Shown piece after piece: positions 4,303 to 63,740 of a DNA stretch of 64,000 bases (within the stretch, counting starts at the first letter, position 1; each line of letters opens with the position of its first letter). A program made the translations under genes and the position numbers. The notes under the pieces are model-generated. The model was not told the origin of the DNA. It saw nothing but the letters and a program-made list of their open reading frames with translations, and did no database searches. Location of the stretch: positions 3,076 to 67,075 of the forward strand of contig JAEOTZ010000001.1 in assembly GCA_016839585.1 (NCBI GenBank), given 5' to 3'. This DNA is from Promethearchaeota archaeon (lineage in GTDB: Archaea; Asgardarchaeota; Lokiarchaeia; Sigyniarchaeales; SOKP01).

Positions 4303-4671
4303 ATGAGATTGGTGTGTAGAGATTGTGGGTCATTTTTAATAGTTCAAAACGAATCATTAACCCAATGTCCCCAATGTGGATCAGAAAATATAGAAACTCG
4401 TTTAATTAATTCTGCAAGACGACAAGAACCAACGATATTTGAGTGTAAAGATTGCGGATTTGGAATCAAAGTTAAAGATAAGCAATTCAAAGTATGCCCT
4501 CAATGTGGTTCAAGCAATATAGGAATTAGTTCGATTAGTTCTACAAGTAGGCAAGAAGGAAAATCAATTAATTCTACATTTGGTTCGGATATTTGGTGTT
4601 GTCTATGTGAAATTCTTGTCCCCCTTATTGGATTTCTTATAATATATTTAGTTTTTATAGGGAGTGTATAG
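4303..4671 (+). CDS. Double zinc-ribbon protein with C-terminal membrane anchor
   Basis: Internally duplicated CxDCG...CPQCGS(E/S)NI modules, followed by a hydrophobic C-terminus (ILVPLIGFLIIYLVFIG). Confidence 0.5.
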   Translation: MRLVCRDCGSFLIVQNESLTQCPQCGSENIETRLINSARRQEPTIFECKDCGFGIKVKDKQFKVCPQCGSSNIGISSISSTSRQEGKSINSTFGSDIWCCLCEILVPLIGFLIIYLVFIGSV

Positions 4672-5630: not shown

Positions 5631-6365
5631 TTAATGAGTCACTAGTTCTTTTTTAGCTTTTTTCATTGTTCTTGAGATTTTTTTTATGACTTTTTCATAC
5701 GGTAATATAAAACCATAAATTAATCCAAAAGATTTTAGAATTGATAAATGGATATCTTCGGACCAAGCTGCACAACAATCTTCCACAATAATTGTTTGAA
5801 ATCCATAATCATGTGCTTCTCGAGCAGTTGAATGGACACAAAAATTCGTCACAACTCCAGAAACTAGAATGGTTTCGATTTCCATATTTCTTAAGTAAGT
5901 GTCAAGCCTAGTTGAGATAAACGCTCCACTTGTATTTTTCTGTAATATGAAATCTCGATCTTCAGGCTTTAATTCTTCAATTATATCAGAGCTGGGGTGA
6001 GATATATGAGGAAACGCAACTTCTCCTACGAGATCTTTAGCTGTTTGATTTAAAATTTTTTGATTTTTTGGCAGATCACTCCCGTCAGGCATAAAACTTG
6101 AATATTTTGTGTATATTACTGTGATTTCAACTTCATGACAAAAGTTAATTAATTTTTGAAGATTTGGGATAACCTTTCTTTCTACTTCATTTACAAAATA
6201 ATCTAAGACTCCTGGAGCAACTTTGTTAAATGATTTATACGCAGCATAATCTTTCTTTAGTTGACATTTTTGCATATCAACAATAATCAATGCTGTTTTT
6301 GCAGGGATAATATCACCCATTAGTCCTTGGACAACTTTATATATCGTATTAAGCTTTTCTTCCAT
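5631..6365 (-). CDS. Isochorismatase-family cysteine hydrolase
   Basis: TALIIVDMQ and VSGVVTNFCVHSTAREA motifs (catalytic D, K, C pattern). Confidence 0.75.
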   Translation of the reverse strand: MEEKLNTIYKVVQGLMGDIIPAKTALIIVDMQKCQLKKDYAAYKSFNKVAPGVLDYFVNEVERKVIPNLQKLINFCHEVEITVIYTKYSSFMPDGSDLPKNQKILNQTAKDLVGEVAFPHISHPSSDIIEELKPEDRDFILQKNTSGAFISTRLDTYLRNMEIETILVSGVVTNFCVHSTAREAHDYGFQTIIVEDCCAAWSEDIHLSILKSFGLIYGFILPYEKVIKKISRTMKKAKKELVTH

Positions 6366-13519: not shown

Positions 13520-14962
13520 TTATTTTTGATTTTTTATTGAACTTTGTCCATACCAATCTACAGATTCGTTTAATGTCATTGAATAACTCATTAAGAGTTC
13601 TCCTTTAGCATCAATCTCAATTTTTTTAAAAAAATCATTGCATAAATCAGGATTATCTTCAGCAATATTATCATTCCACTCTGGATCCTTAGATAAATCA
13701 AATAATTTCTGTTCACTTCTATTATTTGCTGTAATGAAAGCATAATTGTCGTCTTTATATAGTGTGGATAAATGAAATCCACAGGTTATATAATCACGTC
13801 CTTCTAATAATTGGTCATTTCCAGTGATAAATAGTGAAAGATCTAAACCTTCAAATATATCTGGTTTATTTTTTTCTAAGAATCCAAATATGGTTGGTAA
13901 AATGTCATGGTTATACACATAAGATTTCTTTATTCTTTTCGGACCATTTATACCACCTGGAGGTTTAATCATAAAAGGGATGTCTACCAGTTCAGGATAT
14001 AAATACATAGGAATTTTACCAGTTGCATTATGCTCCCCTATGCTGTGACCATGATCACTAATGAAAATAATTAAAGAGTCATCATATATTTCAAGGTTCT
14101 TTAGTTCTTCAATAAAGTAACCAAACCAATTATCACATAGGGATACTTCTCCAGCATAAGAAGCCCTCATATATTTTAATTCCCCTTCAGTTAGATATTT
14201 CAAATTTATACTATAAAATGGTGTAATGACTTTCTTTCCAGTATAATTCTTATCGACATAAAGATCAAGATATTTCTGAGGAGGGTCCCAGGGTTCATGC
14301 GGATCAAACTCATCAATAACACAAAAAGCATTTTCTAGTGATATTGTATCTTTGACAAATTCAAGCGCCTTTTTAAAAGTCTGACCTGGAAAATATTGAC
14401 TCTCATCTTCTCTATCTTGTATATTACTGAGATAGCTTCTTAACATTAATTTTTGATATCGTTGAGCAATCATCTTTCTTTTAGTTGTAATATGTTCCTC
14501 AATATTCTGTTTACTTTCTGTGGAATCCCCTCTAAACCATACTCTATATTTGTCAAATTCATGTCCCCGAATATAATTAAACTGATCAAAGCCAAGCTGA
14601 AAGTTCATATTTGGTTTGAATTGATGATATGTACTGGTAATAAAGACTGAAATGTATTTGTCATCTTTCAAATATTCAACCATGTGACGCTGGTTAGGTG
14701 GTACAGGCGCCCATCCCGGGTCGTCTACAATATCATCAGTCCGAAGTAAAGGTTTTTTATGATTAAAAGGAAAGGTTCGAATCCCTGTATGAATTGATCT
14801 TCGAACTGGAATTGTAGGTAATGATTCTGGATATGCTTTTTCAAATACCAGTGAATCTCTTGCAAACTTATCAAAATTGGGGGTCTTGATCCAACTATTA
14901 CCATATGTTTTTCCAGTATGGTCCTTCCTTAGGGTATCAAAAATAATAACAAAAATTTTCAT
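13520..14962 (-). CDS. Sulfatase-family (alkaline-phosphatase superfamily) hydrolase with Thr at the nucleophile position
   Basis: IIFDTLRKDH metal site. LPTIPVRRSIHTG aligns to the sulfatase signature (C/S)xPxRxxxxTG with T in place of C/S. FISDHGH is also present. Confidence 0.7.
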   Translation of the reverse strand: MKIFVIIFDTLRKDHTGKTYGNSWIKTPNFDKFARDSLVFEKAYPESLPTIPVRRSIHTGIRTFPFNHKKPLLRTDDIVDDPGWAPVPPNQRHMVEYLKDDKYISVFITSTYHQFKPNMNFQLGFDQFNYIRGHEFDKYRVWFRGDSTESKQNIEEHITTKRKMIAQRYQKLMLRSYLSNIQDREDESQYFPGQTFKKALEFVKDTISLENAFCVIDEFDPHEPWDPPQKYLDLYVDKNYTGKKVITPFYSINLKYLTEGELKYMRASYAGEVSLCDNWFGYFIEELKNLEIYDDSLIIFISDHGHSIGEHNATGKIPMYLYPELVDIPFMIKPPGGINGPKRIKKSYVYNHDILPTIFGFLEKNKPDIFEGLDLSLFITGNDQLLEGRDYITCGFHLSTLYKDDNYAFITANNRSEQKLFDLSKDPEWNDNIAEDNPDLCNDFFKKIEIDAKGELLMSYSMTLNESVDWYGQSSIKNQK

Positions 14963-39011: not shown

Positions 39012-39407
39012 ATGAGTAGCAAAGATATGAAATGGGCAATTATTCACATCTTTTCGAGTTATAATAATACCATCGTGACTGCTACAGACCTTAGCGGAGC
39101 AGAAACCTTCGCAAAATGCTCTGGTGGCATGGTAGTAAAAGCTGACCGTGATGAAAGCAATCCCTACGCCGCAATGCAGTGCGGTTTCCGGGTCGCTAAT
39201 GAGCTCAAAGATAAAGGTGTTAGAGGGATACATATCAAAGTAAGAGCCCCCGGTGGTAATAAATCGCAAACTCCCGGTCCAGGTGCTCAAGCATGCATCC
39301 GTGCCCTCGCACGCTCCGGTCTACAAGTTGGAAGGATTGAAGAAGTTACACCTAAGTCGCATGACCACTGTAGAAGGAAGGGGGGCCATCGTGGTCGCCG
39401 TGTATAA
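39012..39407 (+). CDS. rps11: 30S ribosomal protein uS11
   Basis: [45 protein letters not shown] and the ...[11 protein letters not shown] tail. The antisense ORF 38967..39290 is spurious. Confidence 0.9.
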
Positions 39408-43841: not shown

Positions 43842-44261
43842 TTAAAGATAATTAGTTATTTTATTATTAGTTTCTATGTCCTCTACATAGCGAAATGATT
43901 GTGGAGCATTAAAGTTGAGAAATATAGATTTAGGATCTATTGGGTTCTTGAAAAATTTTAGGTTAGAAATTTCTATAGCAAGTCCTTTTTCTTTTTGATT
44001 AAAATATTTGAAAAATTCAGCTTCACCAATCCCAGAAACATCCTTATATTTTTCCCATAATACCGTGGGGTGATCTTCGATAATGATATTTAATAAGAAT
44101 TTAGCTACGATTTTTTTCACTGGTGAGCTTGAATATATGTAAATCTTTTCAATTTTATCAAAATTCTTCTTATTACAAAATGATTTGCGAAACTCATATT
44201 TTTTTCTCCCTTTCTTTATTTCTTCTACATATTTCGGTTTAATTGAAAGTAAAACGTTCAT
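43842..44261 (-). CDS. ASCH (PUA-like) domain protein
   Basis: LSIKPKYVEEIKKGRKKYEFRK is the typical ASCH opening. Its own GGAGG SD lies 6 nt upstream, inside the preceding gene. The start overlaps the upstream stop by 23 nt. Confidence 0.6.
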   Translation of the reverse strand: MNVLLSIKPKYVEEIKKGRKKYEFRKSFCNKKNFDKIEKIYIYSSSPVKKIVAKFLLNIIIEDHPTVLWEKYKDVSGIGEAEFFKYFNQKEKGLAIEISNLKFFKNPIDPKSIFLNFNAPQSFRYVEDIETNNKITNYL

Positions 44262-45762
44262 TAATTCCTCCCTTTTCTTTAATAGATAAATACTTTTGAT
44301 GTTCTATCTCAGTAATCGATTGTGGACGTCCTTGAAGAATATTACTTTTTATCAATTCTTTATACGATATAGGATTTTTAAGATAGAAATGGTGGTTAAA
44401 TAATATTACTGTAATTGGCTTTTTTACTAATTTTTCTATTTCTGAAAGGGAATAAACTGTTCGCTTGCCAACTAAATTGAAAACATACTCTTTATTTGTT
44501 AGATCATATTCAACTTTCTCAACAACACCTAAAGAAACAAGTTCTTTCATATCTTTAGATCGATAGAAAAATACAATATCACCTGGAGCAATTTTTTTTG
44601 TTGAAGAATGAGTTAGATATGTTTTTCTTATCGTATTTCCTTCTATTAAAAATTCATTTAAAACTTCATTTATAGTTAGTTGTCCTCTTCTTGGAAAATC
44701 AGTAAACAAACGATTATGATATTTTGGTCTGATTGGAATTATGTGTTTTTTCACATTTTTCCCATCATAAAAATTAGGAAAATATATTTTTGAAATTTGA
44801 ACTGGTTCTATTGATTGGATCTCATCGTGGGAAATAAATAACTTTTTTACAAATACATCTTCAGGAATCTCAGACCATTCATGTTTAATGATTGCTTCTT
44901 TTTTAAAACCAAAATCTTCAATAAGAGCCACTAAAGGATCATTATCTTTGATAAAATGAGTTAGATATATCTCAGATCTATTATTTTTAAGGGCAAGGTT
45001 AATTGATAATTTAATGAATAACTCGCCAATTTTTTGACCAGTGTAAGAAACAACAATAGTAGCAATTTTTACTCTCTTCTTTTTTGGAAGTTTAGGTATA
45101 GATGCTATTTCCTCATTTTCAAATTTATAGATTAATACGGCTCCAAGCTTATTACCATTTCTATAATAAACCCAACAATTCCTACCATCTCTTGCTTTTT
45201 CATTAAACCAATCGTTAAATCTAGGATATTCTTCTCTCAAAATGTTAAAAATTGGGTCTAATACATTCAGACGAGACATTGATGTTGCTTTTAAAGCGTA
45301 TGGTCGTTTTATTTTTTCTTTAGGGATTTCTTTTTTAAAGAGACTAACCGCATCTAATATTGAGATAATTCTTTCAGAAAGGTCTAATTTTTTCGCTTTC
45401 TTATGTATTCCTATATCTTCTGTTACTAAGAAATTTACTGCATTATGATAAACAGCATATAAGAGATAATTATCTATTACATCATTAACATTTTTTGGCT
45501 TTCCTACAAGAGAAAGAAATTTTGAATTATCAGAAGGGTCGGGAAAATCTTCTAAAAGATTATAAGTCTTAAATTTCGAAAGCGTTATTTGTTTTCTCTT
45601 TTTATCTCGATCTCTATCAATATCTTCAATGGATTTTTGATGGAGGATGATTTTAATGTCTAATTGATTAAAAATTCTCATTAATATCTGTAGATCTTCA
45701 TCTATAATCTTGTTATCTTCTCTCCCAATAATGATATTTGTATCTAATAAAACTCTCATCAA
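44239..45762 (-). CDS. PIN - GNAT acetyltransferase - PUA-like (EVE/ASCH-like) three-domain fusion protein
   Basis: PIN: VLLDTNIII, DVIDNYLL, LVTEDIG. GNAT: IATIVVSYTGQKIGELFIKLSINLAL ... LIEDFGF. C-terminus: GDIVFFYRSKDMKELVSLGVVEKV, a PUA-like pattern. Confidence 0.6.
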   Translation of the reverse strand: MMRVLLDTNIIIGREDNKIIDEDLQILMRIFNQLDIKIILHQKSIEDIDRDRDKKRKQITLSKFKTYNLLEDFPDPSDNSKFLSLVGKPKNVNDVIDNYLLYAVYHNAVNFLVTEDIGIHKKAKKLDLSERIISILDAVSLFKKEIPKEKIKRPYALKATSMSRLNVLDPIFNILREEYPRFNDWFNEKARDGRNCWVYYRNGNKLGAVLIYKFENEEIASIPKLPKKKRVKIATIVVSYTGQKIGELFIKLSINLALKNNRSEIYLTHFIKDNDPLVALIEDFGFKKEAIIKHEWSEIPEDVFVKKLFISHDEIQSIEPVQISKIYFPNFYDGKNVKKHIIPIRPKYHNRLFTDFPRRGQLTINEVLNEFLIEGNTIRKTYLTHSSTKKIAPGDIVFFYRSKDMKELVSLGVVEKVEYDLTNKEYVFNLVGKRTVYSLSEIEKLVKKPITVILFNHHFYLKNPISYKELIKSNILQGRPQSITEIEHQKYLSIKEKGGINERFTFN

Positions 45763-48153: not shown

Positions 48154-48624
48154 ATGAAAGAATGTTTTAGTATTTACATAGGTAACGATATGGATTGCTT
48201 TTGGGACGAAAGATATGGATGGTCTGTCGTGCATGCCTGCAAACACCCATGCCACTGTTACGCTGTAGGGTATAAGGGGAACCTACCCTCCACTCACCCG
48301 TCTTACTTAATATTTCGTCGAGAGTCCCATTTAGTTTTAAATTTAGTAGATATGGATCAACTGGATGACCGCTTTATGCGCCCTATCATAATGGCATTCT
48401 ATAGTTTCATGGATGAGATGGAAGGGCAAAAAATCCTAATACATTGTAATAGAGGTGAATCACGTGCACCGAGCCTAGCTATCCTCTATTTAGCAAAACG
48501 CAGAAAAAAGATCCCAGATGATTCTTTTGATGCTGCAAAACAATCTCTTAAAAAGATTTATCCTTTATATAATCCTGGACGAGGTTTTAATAAATATTTA
48601 CAGCAATATTGGGATTCTTTATAA
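48154..48624 (+). CDS. Cys-based protein phosphatase (dual-specificity/PTP-like, CX5R)
   Basis: HCNRGESRAPS is the HCX5R(S/T) P-loop. The gene is visibly GC-richer than its flanks. Confidence 0.65.
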   Translation: MKECFSIYIGNDMDCFWDERYGWSVVHACKHPCHCYAVGYKGNLPSTHPSYLIFRRESHLVLNLVDMDQLDDRFMRPIIMAFYSFMDEMEGQKILIHCNRGESRAPSLAILYLAKRRKKIPDDSFDAAKQSLKKIYPLYNPGRGFNKYLQQYWDSL

Positions 48625-48650
48625 AGTAAATACAATATAAATGATACTAT

Positions 48651-48674
48651 TTCCCTCCCCCGTGGTGCCCCCTC
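48651..48674. repeat. GC-rich 24-nt direct repeat, copy 1 (TTCCCTCCCCCGTGGTGCCCCCTC)
   Basis: Identical 24-mer at 49855-49878. Lies 45 nt 3' of the minus-strand gene 48719..49687 and 27 nt 3' of the plus-strand phosphatase gene. Confidence 0.9.
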
Positions 48675-48718
48675 ATGAAAAAGTAGTTTAAAAAATTTTA
48701 TATAATTTATATCATAAT

Positions 48719-49687
48719 TCACACCAATAGAGATTTGTAAATATAGCTCAGACTTTCTCGTATGATGGCATAGATTTTTTCTATATACTCAGTATTTATA
48801 TCTATACATTCTCCAATTCGAGATGGATCATATTCCAATTTCTTACATGATTTTTCGTTAATTATACCAGAATTATGAACAATAATATTTCGAATGTAAT
48901 TTGCTTCCCTTAACTCTCTCCAACTCTTAAAATCTCTTTTTAAATTAATATTAAATCTTGATATAATTCTTTTAGCGATTTTATCAATACTTTGATATCC
49001 CCACCAATCCACTTCATTATCGATCATTTTAATTAATAACTCTTCTCTTGTTTGAGAATCAATTATCTCCTTATTAGTAAGATTTTTTGAATTAGACCTT
49101 AGAAGTTCTGGTTTGTATTCATATATTTTCCTAAATAAATCTTTCAGACATGCTTCAAATAAGGAAAATTGATATACTAAAGTCATTTTAGCCAAATGAG
49201 TGATTCTTTTATGCAATTTATCCAAAAAATCGTTACAATTCCAATATATATATTCCCTTTGAGGTAATTTGAGAGTAGTTCTTCTACGTTCTTCATTCGA
49301 CTCAATGCCTTTTAATGATACTGAATAATCTCCTGCAATGATGAACTGATTAAATCCTTGAGATTTTGAATCTTCAATAAAATCCTCTACTTTTTTAAGA
49401 GTTTCTTCGTAACTTAGACAATCTTTGTCATTTTCTAAAATCTCAACAGGAATATATGAATCCCGTTGTCTTTTTTCATTACTTTGCATTGAAGTGAAAA
49501 ATTCCATTAATTCATTTAAATTAGAAGTTTTAGCTTTTTCTAACAATATTTTGTATTTTTCCTTATCTTTTTCTAATGAAATCCAAGCATTCCTTGAAGA
49601 TCTGAATGCATTCATCATATCGGTAAGATAATGGTTAATGATTATATTTAAATCATCCTTCAGAGAATCTCGCATAATCATAATCAC
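48719..49687 (-). CDS. HEPN-motif protein
   Basis: C-terminal domain with FSLFEACLKDLFRKI helix and IRNIIVHNSG (R-x4-H). Confidence 0.5.
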   Translation of the reverse strand: MIMIMRDSLKDDLNIIINHYLTDMMNAFRSSRNAWISLEKDKEKYKILLEKAKTSNLNELMEFFTSMQSNEKRQRDSYIPVEILENDKDCLSYEETLKKVEDFIEDSKSQGFNQFIIAGDYSVSLKGIESNEERRRTTLKLPQREYIYWNCNDFLDKLHKRITHLAKMTLVYQFSLFEACLKDLFRKIYEYKPELLRSNSKNLTNKEIIDSQTREELLIKMIDNEVDWWGYQSIDKIAKRIISRFNINLKRDFKSWRELREANYIRNIIVHNSGIINEKSCKKLEYDPSRIGECIDINTEYIEKIYAIIRESLSYIYKSLLV

Positions 49688-49854
49688 TTTTGGTATTGAT
49701 ATACAAGAGAGTTCCCATTCTATAAAAAGCTTTTGTCTTTTTATTTCACATCGAGATCCTATTCAAACTCATCTCGGAGTATTTTCTGTTACTGAGGATC
49801 TCTTTCCTTAAATGGTAGTTTTTCATTACCATTGTAGATGTAAAAAGTTTTACA

Positions 49855-49878
49855 TTCCCTCCCCCGTGGTGCCCCCTC
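49855..49878. repeat. GC-rich 24-nt direct repeat, copy 2
   Basis: Perfect match to 48651-48674. Lies 100 nt 3' of the minus-strand PIN gene and is preceded by an ATGTAAAA/TTTTACAT hairpin. Confidence 0.9.
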
Positions 49879-49977
49879 CTAAGTGCGAGGTGAACAATTA
49901 TTTTATTTCATAGTCTCTGGACTACTGGTTAAGATACTTCACAGCTTAACCTTCCTAATCAACGGCCTGGTAATAAC

Positions 49978-51276
49978 TTATTGAGAAATATTTATTATAA
50001 GCTTCTGATCTTTATTTACTCCCTCTTCATCGTGCTTAAATGAGCAGAAAAATTGTATTTTTTTCATTTTAAATTCTTCTGGAAACTTTATCATAATAGG
50101 ATATAAACCTAATGTAACATTATGTTGGATTTTTTTAATACTATATCCAAATACCCATATATCATTTTTCTCTTTTTCTATTTTTTCGGGAGAACTGTAT
50201 TTTACATTGTATTCTTTATGAGTAAATTGTGGTATAGTTAATGATGTGTATGGAAAAAAATCTCTCTCTATTTTTGGTTTTTCTGGTTTTTCAAGCTCTT
50301 CCTTGGATTTTAACTTAAAACCTTTTTCCAATATAGTAAATATTTCAATATTAACATTATTATATGGTTTATTGCCTTTATTTGTTAAAAATAATTCAAT
50401 TTCAATGTATTTCCTATGTTCATTCAATTCTTCATAATATTTTAAAACCTCTTCTTTAAAGTGTTTACGGCTTTTTAGATTAAATGATAATGGTGAAAGA
50501 AGTTTTGATGCGTTTGGTCCTAAACTATTAATCAAATCAGCAACAGTTAACCCTTTTTCTTCTGCTTCTTTAATTGTCATATTTTCAGATATTCCTGATT
50601 TTTCATTATCTTTTAAAGCTATTATCTCTTTTTCTTCCTCTTTCATTAAGTCTGGGAACGCTGGAAATTCCTCAGCAATGAATTCATCCAGGCTAAGCTC
50701 ATTCTCAGTAGATAATTCATACTTGTTATCTTTATTTTTAAAAAGTAGTTTTAAATCAGTTAATTTGCTTTTTCTTGCTGGTTGTGTTTCACTTGGTTTG
50801 AAAATTGTTTTATATTCCTCATCTAACCAAAAAATAGTATTAATTCCTAAAGCATCAGCTTGAAAGTAAGGCGTGTTATCTCCTGTTACAAAATATACTT
50901 CATCATCAGGATTGTTTTCTTTAAAGACGAGGATTTCAGCTATAATCTTGCAGTCAGATTCATTTTCATCTAATATTTCTACCCATTCAGGTTTTAAAGA
51001 ACTCCATTTTGTTGGAAAAAATGAAATATTTAAAGTAATACCTTCTTTAAATTCGACATCCTTTAATTCTCTTAATTTATTCTGTATGTTTCTGGCTTTT
51101 TTTTCGTATCTTTTTAAATTGTCCAACTCCTTATTAACCATATATGATACTACAATTACAATTTTATTATCATCCTGAGTTTCCTCAAATAAATTTCTCC
51201 AATCTATTTCTGTAAAGGTTTTACAGTGCAAAAAAACATTTGTATCAAGAAAAATATATTTAGTCATAATCATCAC
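49978..51276 (-). CDS. PIN-domain protein with long unknown C-terminal region
   Basis: YIFLDTNVFLH, NKELDN, DCKIIAEIL and YFVTGDN (the four acidic positions of PIN), followed by about 270 aa that were not recognised. Confidence 0.55.
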   Translation of the reverse strand: MMIMTKYIFLDTNVFLHCKTFTEIDWRNLFEETQDDNKIVIVVSYMVNKELDNLKRYEKKARNIQNKLRELKDVEFKEGITLNISFFPTKWSSLKPEWVEILDENESDCKIIAEILVFKENNPDDEVYFVTGDNTPYFQADALGINTIFWLDEEYKTIFKPSETQPARKSKLTDLKLLFKNKDNKYELSTENELSLDEFIAEEFPAFPDLMKEEEKEIIALKDNEKSGISENMTIKEAEEKGLTVADLINSLGPNASKLLSPLSFNLKSRKHFKEEVLKYYEELNEHRKYIEIELFLTNKGNKPYNNVNIEIFTILEKGFKLKSKEELEKPEKPKIERDFFPYTSLTIPQFTHKEYNVKYSSPEKIEKEKNDIWVFGYSIKKIQHNVTLGLYPIMIKFPEEFKMKKIQFFCSFKHDEEGVNKDQKLIINISQ

Positions 51277-51279
51277 TCT

Positions 51280-51432
51280 TTACTTAATTGTATATAGTCT
51301 CGATAGTCTTAAAACTTTTAATACAATAACAGAAAGATTTAATCCTGACAACTCAATATTTTTTATAATTTCTTCAAACAAATGTAAGGCTTCTTCTAAA
51401 TTTTTTTTACTCGGAGGTATATATCTATACAT
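51280..51432 (-). CDS. Small 50-aa ORF immediately upstream of the PIN gene (antitoxin-position candidate)
   Basis: Hand translation: MYRYIPPSKKNLEEALHLFEEIIKNIELSGLNLSVIVLKVLRLSRLYTIK. The stop lies 3 nt before the PIN GTG/ATG start. It is below the track's length cut-off. Confidence 0.3.
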   Translation of the reverse strand: MYRYIPPSKKNLEEALHLFEEIIKNIELSGLNLSVIVLKVLRLSRLYTIK

Positions 51433-51571
51433 TTTTATAATCCTAACTACTAATCTTCTTATTTTGTTTTTGCTTTACCCTGTAATAAACAAAACAGAAA
51501 TATATGCTTTTCCCCATTCTCTCTAAAAATTTGTGTCTCCTTCTTATGATCTTTGCTGTAAATGGGAATTT

Positions 51572-52342
51572 TTAACCTCCTAAAATAGTCTGGTCAGGAA
51601 AATCTTCTATTAGTTTTTTGTCAATACTATAAATGAATTCTGCAATATCTCTATAACAAGACTCTACTATTGATAAATCTATCTCTGGACCACTTAGAGA
51701 ACCTTTTGCACCACTGTGAATTATCTTATTTCTCAGTTTTCTATAGCTTGAGGGTTCATCTGAAAAAATTCTTTGCCATAAAGTGGGAAAAATAGTGGAT
51801 AAATCTATATTTAATAATTGAAACGCACATCTTACAATATCTTTTTCTTGAAAAGATAATTGAATATTTGGGGGCAACAGAGCGTATAATTTTACATTTC
51901 TCAGAAGATCAATATTGTCATAGTTTAATCTTATATTGACTCGTAGTTTTCCTATCCGTTTATTAAACCTTTCTACCACTCCTAACTCATTAAACCCGTT
52001 CTCTCCATAGCGAAGAAATAAATCTTCTAGAGTATTTATATAGGCTATTATCATAAATGCACTTCTTAGATAATCCTCAATTGCAGTTATTAAATTCACA
52101 ATGACATTTTCACATAAAAATGTGAATTTTATTGGATTACTTTCAGAATTTTGAATAATATCTGAATAGATCGAAAATACTCTATTAAAGTTTAAGACAA
52201 AATTAGGAAAAGCTAAAGTGTGTCTATCTTCAATTTTTTCATAGGTATAGAATAAAGATCCTTGTTTATGTTTTAATTCTGTTATTTTTACTATATTATA
52301 GTTTCTAAGAATATCTCGGAATCTATTTTCATCATTAATCAT
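51572..52342 (-). CDS. HEPN-motif protein
   Basis: LITAIEDYLRSAF helix and LRNKIIHSG (R-x4-H). Confidence 0.5.
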   Translation of the reverse strand: MINDENRFRDILRNYNIVKITELKHKQGSLFYTYEKIEDRHTLAFPNFVLNFNRVFSIYSDIIQNSESNPIKFTFLCENVIVNLITAIEDYLRSAFMIIAYINTLEDLFLRYGENGFNELGVVERFNKRIGKLRVNIRLNYDNIDLLRNVKLYALLPPNIQLSFQEKDIVRCAFQLLNIDLSTIFPTLWQRIFSDEPSSYRKLRNKIIHSGAKGSLSGPEIDLSIVESCYRDIAEFIYSIDKKLIEDFPDQTILGG

Positions 52343-52968
52343 AGAAGATCACTTCAATTTACAAATATATTTATTAGAATTACTTAATTGTTTGTTTATA
52401 TTTAAATTTATATTTAATTTCTGTCTTAACCAATAATAAACGCAACAGCAATATATTTTTATCCCTCTACTTACAACTTATGGAAAAACCATTCTAATGA
52501 TTTTTGCTCCTAATTAGGGGACAAATAGTTGTCCTCACAACAGCTGATGAAAATCTACTAATTAATTTGATGTTCATGTTCTTTTTGAAGATAATATCTG
52601 TTGCAAGTGTAGCATCATCGAGGATTTCCAGATTTTAATAATAATTGAAGTAGGATGGTATTTCAGCTGAAAAAATAATAATGCGTTATTAAATCAGCTT
52701 ATAGATATTATGAATAGCTTAAAAATTAATGCTAACCTAAAAAGGACATAAGAAAGACATAACAAATATAAGAATTAGAAATTGTACGTTAATTGGATTA
52801 CTTTTGGCAATAACTTTCAAATATTATTGATTAAGTAAAGAATAAGTTTTTTTAAATTTTACGGTTATTTCACGAAAAATATTGATAATAATATATAGAT
52901 AGACTGCAATTATATTAAAAAGGATATAAAAATGATGTTTAGTTGTTATTTCAATTCATAATTGAATT

Positions 52969-63488: not shown

Positions 63489-63740
63489 TTATTGATTGGT
63501 TGTTTTCGCCAGTCTTGTTTCCAAGAGGCATGGACGTTCATCGAAGAAGGTCCAATACTTATGGAGACTGGCAAAGCGGTGTCCGCAGTGGCAGGAGAGT
63601 CTGCTTTCTTCGGGCGTTATCGGGGTCTCGATAAGACGCTCCAGAGATCGCACTTTTCTACACTTAGGACAGTAAATCCAATATTGCGCTTTTTTTATTA
63701 CTTCTCGGATTTTGATTTTGATCACATCCATTGATATCAT
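63489..63740 (-). CDS. Small zinc-ribbon protein, GC-rich
   Basis: CPKC...CHCGH. It is much GC-richer than its surroundings, which is why a mirror ORF appears on the plus strand. Confidence 0.4.
   Translation of the reverse strand: MISMDVIKIKIREVIKKAQYWIYCPKCRKVRSLERLIETPITPEESRLSCHCGHRFASLHKYWTFFDERPCLLETRLAKTTNQ

Follow-up and report, generated by a model that had tools for sequence, protein, structure and literature searches.

A G/C-rich mirror-repeat element that may join small gene modules in Lokiarchaeia-type Asgard archaea

In integrons, cassette ORFs are mostly promoterless and co-oriented, and the tyrosine recombinase IntI is found beside attI and Pc at an array end. Among known organisms, Asgard archaea stand nearest to the host lineage of eukaryotes, and to our knowledge little is known of how their large sets of accessory genes are acquired and reshuffled. 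According to one report, attC arrays are enriched in Asgard MAGs, mostly without an integrase (Ghaly et al. 2022, PMC9668308). Here we describe a short element, present twice in the window (the whole 64,000-nt stretch of Promethearchaeota DNA analysed here), for which a literature search found no paper on either its core sequence or such a Lokiarchaeia repeat. On balance we favour the view that it is a junction between small gene modules, at which recombination in the core joins modules or exchanges them between positions and strains. In these respects it behaves like a cassette site, without resembling any known one.

The first-pass annotation had pointed to a perfectly duplicated 24-nt sequence in DNA of about 70% A+T. 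An exact search recovers both copies of TTCCCTCCCCCGTGGTGCCCCCTC, at 48651-48674 and 49855-49878, identical, on the + strand and spaced by 1204 nt, and the computed G+C content of the window (29.8%) agrees with the description of its surroundings. No other site in the window matches, even with up to three mismatches allowed, and the 24-mer did not occur in 100 dinucleotide-preserving shuffles, so that no chance copies are expected. A profile of the repeat family described below aligns to the + strand at 48643-48696 (E = 5.8e-15; 21-nt core at 48653-48673) and at 49848-49899 (E = 2e-11; core at 49857-49877), indicating that the conserved element is longer than 24 nt. The profile detects no third copy in the window, even a diverged one, and the element occupies 2 of its ~60 intergenic gaps. 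The copies do lie 3’ of two genes as had been proposed, but at 44 nt from the stop of the ORF at 48719..49687 (minus strand) and 99 nt from that of the ORF at 49978..51276 (minus strand), not at 45 and 100 nt. The ORF list places one gene between them, in agreement with the earlier description of a bracketed 1.2-kb single-gene unit (48675..49854, minus strand). The inverted repeats noted near copy 2 (ATGTAAAA/TTTTACAT and GAGATCC/GGATCTC) are likewise present in the sequence, and they are specific to this locus, since the left flanks of other family members are unrelated. A structured RNA next to copy 2 was rejected, with fold z-scores of -0.22 and -0.63 that are not significant.

The gene within the unit (48719-49687) encodes 322 residues that include an RNIIVHN motif, and the 167-nt region upstream of it contains a TATA-like TTTTTATA. 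It had been labelled a HEPN gene. The ORF matches nothing in Pfam, PADLOC, NCBIfam or PDB, and the label therefore finds no confirmation in these databases; however, the alignment of its family contains an invariant W...RN...H motif of the HEPN Rx4-6H type, and a HEPN identity predicted from this motif is plausible but not proven. Copy 1 lies between this gene and a convergent dual-specificity-phosphatase-like gene on its outer side (48154..48624, + strand; DSPc, E = 4e-7, below the Pfam cut-off). Copy 2 lies between the promoter region of the HEPN-like gene and the 3’ end of a PIN gene, a label that holds up in Pfam (PIN_4 in the ORF at 49978..51276, E = 2.2e-12). The module beyond copy 2 (49978..51432, minus strand) consists of a 50-aa ORF (51280-51432) followed by the PIN_4 protein (49978-51276), an arrangement that resembles an antitoxin/toxin pair; both gene calls recur identically in Logan contigs. 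Upstream of this operon is a promoter-like module of ~60-70 nt (51464..51524, + strand; nhmmer E = 1.2e-14) that directly adjoins the core at other loci, whereas here it stands without an intact core. A second copy of the promoter-like module (52416..52473, + strand; nhmmer E = 1.7e-12) lies upstream of a RiboL-PSP-HEPN gene identified by Pfam (51572-52342). Logan contigs of the same strain that carry the window’s genes are 100% identical to it, with no polymorphism at the locus.

Beyond the window, the 21-nt core CCCTCCCCCGTGGTGCCCCCT is present in at least 120 stretches of marine-sediment metagenome, plus Promethearchaeota MAGs; as these loci were collected by exact match to the core, its apparent conservation is inflated and they do not provide a fair search for empty sites. 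The full 24-mer occurs in two Promethearchaeota MAGs, each of which has a second near-copy. Conservation is confined to ~45 nt with the consensus (T-rich)TTATCTCCCTCCCCCGTGGTGCCCCCTCCTAAAAAAGTAGG, in which a T-rich stretch is followed by TTATCT, by a 22-nt perfect mirror repeat (CCTCCCCC-GTGGTG-CCCCCTCC) and then by TAAAAAAGTAGG. The symmetry of the core is that of a mirror repeat; it is neither a palindrome nor dyad-symmetric. Nearly all copies are intergenic (160/165), and spurious ORFs carry the core in every reading frame, which indicates that it is non-coding and rules out a coding sequence. The four configurations of flanking genes around the motif (M) occur at similar frequencies (+M+ 29, +M- 28, -M- 22 and -M+ 21), without a preference for gene strand. 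The element lies closer to the 3’ ends of genes (medians of 54 and 93 nt) than to their 5’ ends (~166 nt), and its distances to gene starts are too long and too variable for a promoter or Shine-Dalgarno sequence of the downstream gene. The repeat is therefore widespread, as an alternative raised in the first-pass annotation supposed, but it is not without relation to gene ends: copies are intergenic, lie nearer 3’ ends and bound units.

The copies form short arrays of 1-4. Adjacent copies are ~1.1 kb apart, with spacings of 337-5785 nt and genes in the intervals, and 47 of the 49 such pairs point the same way (p = 4e-12). Copies cluster locally, with a copy in 20%, 15% and 11% of gaps at offsets of one to three positions and in 0 of 88 at offsets of six or more. 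We distinguished 41 units, most with a single ORF and with a median length of ~1.1 kb, and the unit in the window agrees with the others in both size and one-gene content. The cargo of a unit is one or two genes of accessory, defence or toxin-antitoxin type, unrelated and in either orientation, 35 ORFs running with the motif and 22 against it; the families include GNAT, PIN, DUF433/DUF5615, AbiEii-like, Schlafen, hydrolases, Ras and CSD. Four Pfam batches, covering recurrent neighbours, genes at array ends and the window island on contigs that are short, revealed no recombinase, integrase or transposase beside the arrays, among the recurrent neighbour families or at 36-64 kb of the window. The sole exception was a single LAGLIDADG ORF at one locus (L070).

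Comparison of related contigs suggests what happens at the element. Pairs of copies share the abutting flank on both sides in only 3 cases, but on the left alone in 16 and on the right alone in 23, so that 39 pairs share one flank. In alignments, homology ends or starts at the core, and variants in the left part of the element go with the left flank and those in the right part with the right flank. Synteny breaks in this way at copy 1 of the window: by blastn, the phosphatase side is 92% identical in nucleotide sequence to another locus (L111) up to and through the core, beyond which L111 has an unrelated gene in the opposite orientation. The same unit can also be found with different neighbours on both sides (L054/L070, 91.8% identity over 1055 nt; L028/L046, 93%), a module with a 69-aa ORF follows the core in at least nine loci, each with a different left flank, and an X-M-Y arrangement at L116 has as its counterpart at L068 X-M-(1589 nt)-M-Y’, where the Y module is multi-copy. 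Overall, 25% of internal ends of homology blocks fall within 30 nt of a core, compared with 2.2% of positions, and 10 of 34 ends do so within 10 nt for blocks of at least 92% identity; about two-thirds of block ends are away from cores, so that the core is a hotspot and not the sole junction. At a further locus (L110), a homolog of the window’s HEPN-like gene is bracketed by a different direct repeat, of 117 nt, with a spacing of 1213 nt compared with 1204 nt in the window, as expected of Campbell-type insertion of a circular unit.

We hypothesize that a module consists of its own promoter and one or two genes, mostly of accessory, defence or toxin-antitoxin type, and that recombination inside the 21-24-bp core would join, remove or swap modules among genome positions and strains. 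Modules might travel as circles, each with a single core copy, and insert at another such copy; direct repeats like those in the window would then arise automatically. The reaction could be catalysed by host homologous recombination acting on the identical core or by an unlinked site-specific recombinase, and transcriptional insulation of modules may be a further effect of the GC-rich, G4-prone core and the oligo-T that flanks it on both strands. On this reading, which we hold with modest confidence as a whole, the element would be a dispersed, non-coding one specific to Lokiarchaeia-type Asgard archaea (Promethearchaeota), and the bracketed 1.2-kb HEPN-like gene would be one such module, in a defence island between the PIN module and the phosphatase gene. 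The suggestion of a cassette-type site or insertion scar is thus partly upheld, by the ~1-kb units in the same orientation and the synteny breakpoints, one of them at copy 1; the qualifier ‘attC-like’ is not. It is possible, though we consider it unlikely, that the arrays represent an undescribed integron-like cassette system of Lokiarchaeia-type Asgards, in which modules of one or two genes with promoters of their own would leave and enter at a non-hairpin, sequence-conserved G/C mirror-repeat site, served by an unlinked recombinase or by bimolecular-quadruplex synapsis of G5-N6-G5 cores.

Alternatively, the element could primarily be a bidirectional terminator or insulator, or a boundary or regulatory protein site, between accessory genes that are transcribed independently, with the synteny breaks a by-product of occasional homologous recombination at identical sequences of 21-45 bp. 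The bias towards 3’ ends and the 28 convergent-gene cases fit such a function, and oligo-T runs of at least five precede the core within 40 nt in 48% of approaches along the C-rich strand and 68% along the G-rich one, compared with 27% for intergenic control DNA. Whatever the orientation of the neighbouring gene, the element includes the A6 run and the T-rich flank, and in one subfamily the core is 8-24 nt from the conserved promoter-like module. However, despite the enrichment of oligo-T before the core on both strands, the element is absent at most gene ends, as its presence in 2 of ~60 gaps of the window and in none of the 88 gaps six or more positions away illustrates, and 21 copies sit between divergent gene starts. 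Archaeal oligo-T terminators need no conserved 21-nt core, and a function blind to orientation does not predict the co-orientation of 47 of 49 neighbours. We regard this explanation as doubtful. The co-orientation could instead mirror polarity on the scale of the chromosome, since all seven copies on one 51-kb contig point the same way. A one-strand G4-prone motif, or an analogue of KOPS, Chi or Ter, would take its orientation from the replichore, and stalled forks could make it a fragile recombination hotspot. In keeping with this, co-orientation extends to pairs 3-6 kb apart (5/5) and to a 19-kb contig (4/4), is independent of gene orientation, and accompanies a G4Hunter score of 1.78 on the G-rich strand. 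Against it, the motif keeps strictly to intergenic DNA and clusters locally, unlike polarity signals, which usually spread through genes too, and its orientation does not follow local skew in GC (38 vs 41 loci) or in AT (40 vs 39), nor the coding strand (37 vs 42), which rules out a polarity of strand composition; the minimum-energy fold in ViennaRNA also lacks a G4. A replication signal is accordingly improbable.

The same G4Hunter score could be invoked for an RNA G-quadruplex or similar 3’UTR element common to the transcripts of the two toxin-like genes, as had been suggested, and both copies in the window do lie downstream of minus-strand genes, so that the G-rich strand would be transcribed. 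Across the family, however, genes flank the motif on either strand at similar frequency, so that the C-rich strand would be transcribed about half the time. With flanks (29/28/22/21) and unit ORFs (35 vs 22) so balanced and no G4 in the ViennaRNA minimum-energy fold, a shared RNA quadruplex is not supported as the general function, and the lack of a significant fold or of any Rfam match, at gathering or permissive thresholds, makes the 3’UTR explanation highly improbable. The motif, written for the quadruplex question as the DNA strand d(AGGAGGGGGCACCACGGGGGAGGGAGA), has only three runs of three or more Gs and would need a bulge, a two-tetrad or a bimolecular form; G4Hunter and the ViennaRNA G4 model disagree on it. 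A selfish miniature element of MITE or REP type, copying itself into intergenic DNA with no role in moving genes, would explain the high copy number, the small size and the near-identical intergenic copies in unrelated contexts. Such self-insertion should leave both flanks homologous to an empty site, whereas the homology observed is one-sided. Furthermore, the consensus lacks both terminal inverted repeats and hairpin potential (fold z ~0.15), its core being a mirror repeat and not a palindrome; no transposase lies nearby; and 0 empty compared with 18 occupied homologous sites were found in what is a low-power comparison. We rejected a MITE on these grounds, and a selfish element in general seems very improbable, although less so than the shared 3’UTR. 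Least probable of all is a classical cassette array (CALIN) of the type reported in Asgards, with the repeat as part of attC. The organisation of the arrays and the cassette-type gene content are similar, but RYYYAAC...GTTRRRY boxes (R''/R') occur in 0 of 160 copies, and these have no excess hairpin stability (mean DNA fold z-score 0.15), which excludes an attC site. The site does not differ in sequence between units, unlike attCs, in which it is the structure that is conserved; ORFs lie in both orientations with their own promoters, the window unit having its own upstream region with a TATA-like box; and no IntI was found among neighbours, array-end genes or at 36-64 kb of the window.

Other classes of site were set aside on simpler grounds. 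The minus-strand GAGGGGGCACCA prompted a search for a tRNA 3’ end or att site, but ARAGORN found no tRNA in the window or in two further loci (L001 and L002), Rfam gave no hit, and the bracketed DNA holds the HEPN-like gene alone, without an integrase. A viral att site was rejected with 0 matches to the 21-nt core in viral contigs. CRISPR repeats, which are regularly arrayed with spacers of about 30-40 nt, do not fit spacings of 337-5785 nt with genes between, and Rfam CRISPR models miss the motif. No IS200/IS605-like gene was present among the neighbours examined.

If the junction reading is correct, the motif would be a directly searchable mark of where Lokiarchaeial gene modules join and exchange. 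Among the genes in these modules are toxin-antitoxin, HEPN/PIN and further defence genes and members of the expanded GTPase families. Should a dedicated enzyme act on it, the motif, being a mirror repeat that is neither dyad-symmetric nor hairpin-forming, would represent a novel class of recombination site; should the core be used by ordinary homologous recombination, the motif would be an archaeal counterpart of the repeat-mediated ‘minimal mobile elements’. An undescribed cassette system, if real, would provide the archaea most closely related to eukaryotes with a dedicated means of reshuffling their defence and accessory genes. In practice, the motif could help to mark out variable modules in fragmented MAGs, and outward-facing PCR or read searches for circular intermediates could be designed from it.

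Several known systems share features with these junctions. Like the G4 recombination initiators of Neisseria pilE and the immunoglobulin switch regions, the element is a G-rich, G4-prone sequence where gene segments exchange; those, in contrast, act at a single locus, where they drive gene conversion or class switching, and not at dispersed junctions, and the G4 here is predicted by G4Hunter and not by ViennaRNA. The Xer-dependent pdif modules of Acinetobacter plasmids are likewise small, often with toxin-antitoxin or accessory genes; copies of a short conserved site delimit them, and they turn up in varied contexts with no recombinase linked to them. However, pdif sites are 28-bp XerC/XerD sites with inverted 11-bp arms and a 6-bp spacer that alternate in orientation around modules, whereas our core is not dyad-symmetric and its copies are direct. 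REP/BIME, ERIC and BOX repeats, and Neisseria DUS and Correia elements, are short, high-copy and intergenic, as is this one (at least 120 loci, 160/165 intergenic), share its bias towards gene 3’ ends, are kept across related species, and are known recombination hotspots and landmarks of variable regions. They differ in being palindromic, forming stem-loops and occurring in both orientations, whereas this element is a non-palindromic mirror repeat without a stem-loop, with co-oriented neighbours and no RAYT-like gene seen. Integron arrays and CALINs differ in their sites and layout, as here a sequence-identical G/C-rich mirror repeat stands in place of a hairpin with R''/L''/L'/R' boxes and GTTRRRY, ORFs of either orientation have their own promoters, arrays comprise 1-4 copies and neither IntI nor attI was seen. 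Yet they too consist of ~0.5-2-kb, mostly one-ORF units separated by a repeated site in one orientation, mostly in arrays without a linked integrase, with one unit recurring in different contexts and a heterogeneous cargo rich in toxin-antitoxin genes, GNATs, hydrolases and unknowns.

The perfect 24-nt direct repeat described in the first-pass annotation is borne out by our searches, with TTCCCTCCCCCGTGGTGCCCCCTC lying on the plus strand at 48651-48674 and 49855-49878. These were its only matches in the whole window (29.8% G+C) even with up to three mismatches, none occurred in 100 dinucleotide-preserving shuffles, and a profile of the repeat family found no third window copy. Copy 1 lies 44 nt past the stop of a minus-strand ORF (48719..49687) encoding a 322-aa HEPN-like protein, and copy 2 lies 99 nt past the stop of a minus-strand ORF (49978..51276) encoding a 432-aa PIN_4-domain protein. 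The 322-aa protein had no match in the domain, defence and structure libraries searched; a HEPN-type W...RN...H motif is invariant across its family. The small inverted repeats previously noted beside copy 2 are present in the sequence but absent from other members of the repeat family.

The surrounding 24 kb form a defence island that begins right after ribosomal protein S11 and contains HEPN_Swt1, PDC-M11A/B, phosphatase-like, the bracketed HEPN-like, a 50-aa/PIN pair and RiboL-PSP-HEPN genes, followed farther along by type I RM hsdM/S/R, a GIY-YIG/DUF4357 gene and a HerA-like ATPase. The PDC-M11A (507 aa, E=8e-145) and PDC-M11B (139 aa, E=5e-48) ORFs at 43842-45762 match a PADLOC candidate defence system, here in an Asgard archaeal genome. 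The 50-aa ORF (51280-51432) ends 3 nt ahead of the PIN_4 gene start, a layout like that of an antitoxin/toxin pair; PADLOC and NCBIfam models gave no hit for either protein. Further short GC-rich or G4Hunter-high islands lie in the AT-rich window at 14696-14729, 63576-63599, ~11455 and ~16116, and another, at 39291-39404, sits within the S11 gene.

The 24-mer was found in two Promethearchaeota (Asgard) MAG contigs, each with a second near-copy. Its 21-nt core, CCCTCCCCCGTGGTGCCCCCT, occurs in at least 120 marine and deep-sediment metagenome contig stretches among the matches listed, and had no matches in viral contigs. All related loci were collected through an exact core match, and their contigs are short. 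Alignment of ~155 distinct copies revealed a conserved element of ~45 nt, (T-rich)TTATCTCCCTCCCCCGTGGTGCCCCCTCCTAAAAAAGTAGG, beyond which the flanks are unrelated between copies; CCTCCCCCGTGGTGCCCCCTCC forms a perfect mirror repeat of 22 nt without being palindromic. We found no tRNA around the repeat and no matching Rfam family at any threshold; its RNA fold is not significant and it is non-coding. None of the papers searched contains the core sequence or describes such a repeat.

The element is intergenic in 160 of 165 copies, with the four flanking-gene layouts (M, motif) about equally frequent (+M+ 29, +M- 28, -M- 22, -M+ 21) and a median distance of 54 and 93 nt from gene 3' ends versus ~166 nt from 5' ends. 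Copies cluster: intergenic gaps one, two and three away from a motif-bearing gap carry the motif in 20%, 15% and 11% of cases, and those at least six away in none of 88. Neighbouring copies are spaced 337-5785 nt apart, and 47 of the 49 pairs share one orientation (p=4e-12). Most of the 41 distinct units that lie between adjacent copies contain a single ORF, at times a toxin-antitoxin-like pair; their ORFs run with the motif in 35 cases and against it in 22. The median length of units up to 3 kb is ~1.1 kb. In both size and content, the 1.2-kb one-gene unit in the window is thus typical of the family. Unit products are mixed, including GNATs, PIN, DUF433/DUF5615, AbiEii-like ATPases, Schlafen/AlbA_2, hydrolases, metallo-beta-lactamase fold, Tpt1, RidA and cold-shock proteins and a Ras-family GTPase.

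Comparison of loci suggests that the element marks recombination junctions. Homology abutting the motif covers both flanks in only 3 copy pairs, the left flank alone in 16 and the right alone in 23; near-identity either reaches through the core and ends within ~0-12 nt, or begins at the core edge. Left-part variants (ATTATCT, TTAGTCT, TTACCT) go with the left flank and right-part variants (CCTAAAAAAGTAGG, CCTAAATTGAATGG, CCTAAAAATGATGTG) with the right, which places the crossovers in the core. For example, L111, a related locus, matches window copy 1 at 92% on the phosphatase side and carries the core, past which it runs into a different HEPN-type gene in opposite orientation. The pairs L054/L070 (91.8% over 1055 nt) and L028/L046 (93%) each share an entire unit whose neighbours differ on either side, and an arrangement X-core-Y in L116 corresponds to X-core-[1589 nt]-core-Y' in L068, X and Y being flanking segments. 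This Y is a module present in multiple copies that encodes a 69-aa ORF (VIGLKLKEEESFHGEIIETPEEF…; L116 129-450, also L068, L070, L023, L098, L102, L091 and L067); in at least 9 loci it comes directly after a core, and the left flanks of these loci differ. As a control, the internal ends of all homology blocks were compared with the cores: 25% of these ends fell no more than 30 nt from one, versus 2.2% of positions, and among blocks with an identity of 92% or higher the distance was at most 10 nt for 10 of 34 ends. The core is thus a strong hotspot and not the sole junction.

Other modules recur near cores. Some copies of the 69-aa-ORF module follow decayed cores (L116 ~3985, L070 2022). A right-flank module, CCTAAATTGAATGGTAAATTCAGAGTCTGATTTCAATGAAAA (L014 7779-, L028, L046, L056, L122, L063), holds a short inverted repeat ATTGAA…TTCAAT and usually follows a core, once occurring without one (L063). 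An intergenic module of ~60-70 nt (…TTGTCTTAMYCYATAATAAACRCAACAGAAATATAT.YTTTTCCCCATTCTCTC…), which on the minus strand looks like a BRE/TATA promoter, lies 8-24 nt left of the core in 12 of 24 occurrences and always has the same orientation as the cores at its locus. Its two window copies, at 51464-51524 and 52416-52473, precede the 50-aa/PIN operon and the RiboL-PSP-HEPN gene and have no intact core beside them; the stretch beyond 51520 might be a core decayed by C-to-T changes (11/22 matches, not significant). Small GTPases of the Ras/Roc type (10 loci) and LRR proteins (9 loci) are the families that most often adjoin the element, as in L077 (814-3003) and L117 (629-2500). Lokiarchaeia carry both as expanded 'eukaryote-like' paralog families, a hint that their proliferation may involve the element.

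Mechanistically, a circle integrating at a shared sequence would leave direct repeats around the unit, and excision between two direct copies would regenerate it. Such exchange could be catalysed by an unlinked site-specific enzyme, or by the host's homologous recombination working on the identical stretch of 21-45 bp. Searches around the arrays and in the window's island turned up no recombinase. The sole nuclease-type gene seen by an array is a free-standing 437-aa LAGLIDADG ORF (L070 2682-3992), at a distance of ~640 nt from the final core in an array of three copies. Homologous recombination gains some support from L110, where a 70%-identical homolog of the window HEPN-like gene is bracketed by 117-nt direct repeats unrelated to the core (4479-4595 and 5692-5808, 91% identity), spaced 1213 nt apart versus 1204 nt in the window. 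This repeat is the 3' end of an 89-aa gene in duplicate, and that gene end recurs as a third, incomplete copy 3.3 kb off in the same orientation (1199-1310). The pattern fits Campbell-type insertion at any shared sequence and suggests that small units would have inserted repeatedly, duplicating their target.

Several other explanations bear on these data. A terminator or insulator with recombination incidental would account for the 3'-end bias and for the oligo-T runs, which on either strand are commoner ahead of the core than in control DNA, yet it leaves the rarity, clustering and co-orientation of copies unexplained; as an added role of the element, in view of the oligo-T, it is possible. 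A replichore-polarity signal would explain why copies share an orientation (7 of 7 on one 51-kb contig, for instance), but not their strict intergenic clustering; orientation showed no relation to the coding strand or to local skew, whether GC or AT. The proposed 3'UTR RNA G-quadruplex is not supported: flanking genes lie on either strand relative to the motif, and ViennaRNA predicts no G4 in the core, whose G-rich strand has a G4Hunter score of 1.78. A MITE fails a defining test, with no MITE-type termini and, in a comparison of low power, no empty sites found.

Classical attC arrays have been reported from Asgard MAGs (PMC9668308). An attC array fails here, as R''/R' boxes were present in 0 of 160 copies and the mean DNA fold z-score was 0.15. 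The earlier idea of a cassette-type site is supported for behaviour, in units and junctions, but not for the attC-like label, and the repeat does not belong to any family tested, though it acts like a cassette-system joint. A new recombination system dedicated to such sites may exist in Asgard archaea, though we consider this unlikely. Hairpin structure defines the integron attC site; the Asgard repeat, which has no such hairpin, appears to function as a cassette joint, a variation on the known theme of repeat-bounded gene modules.
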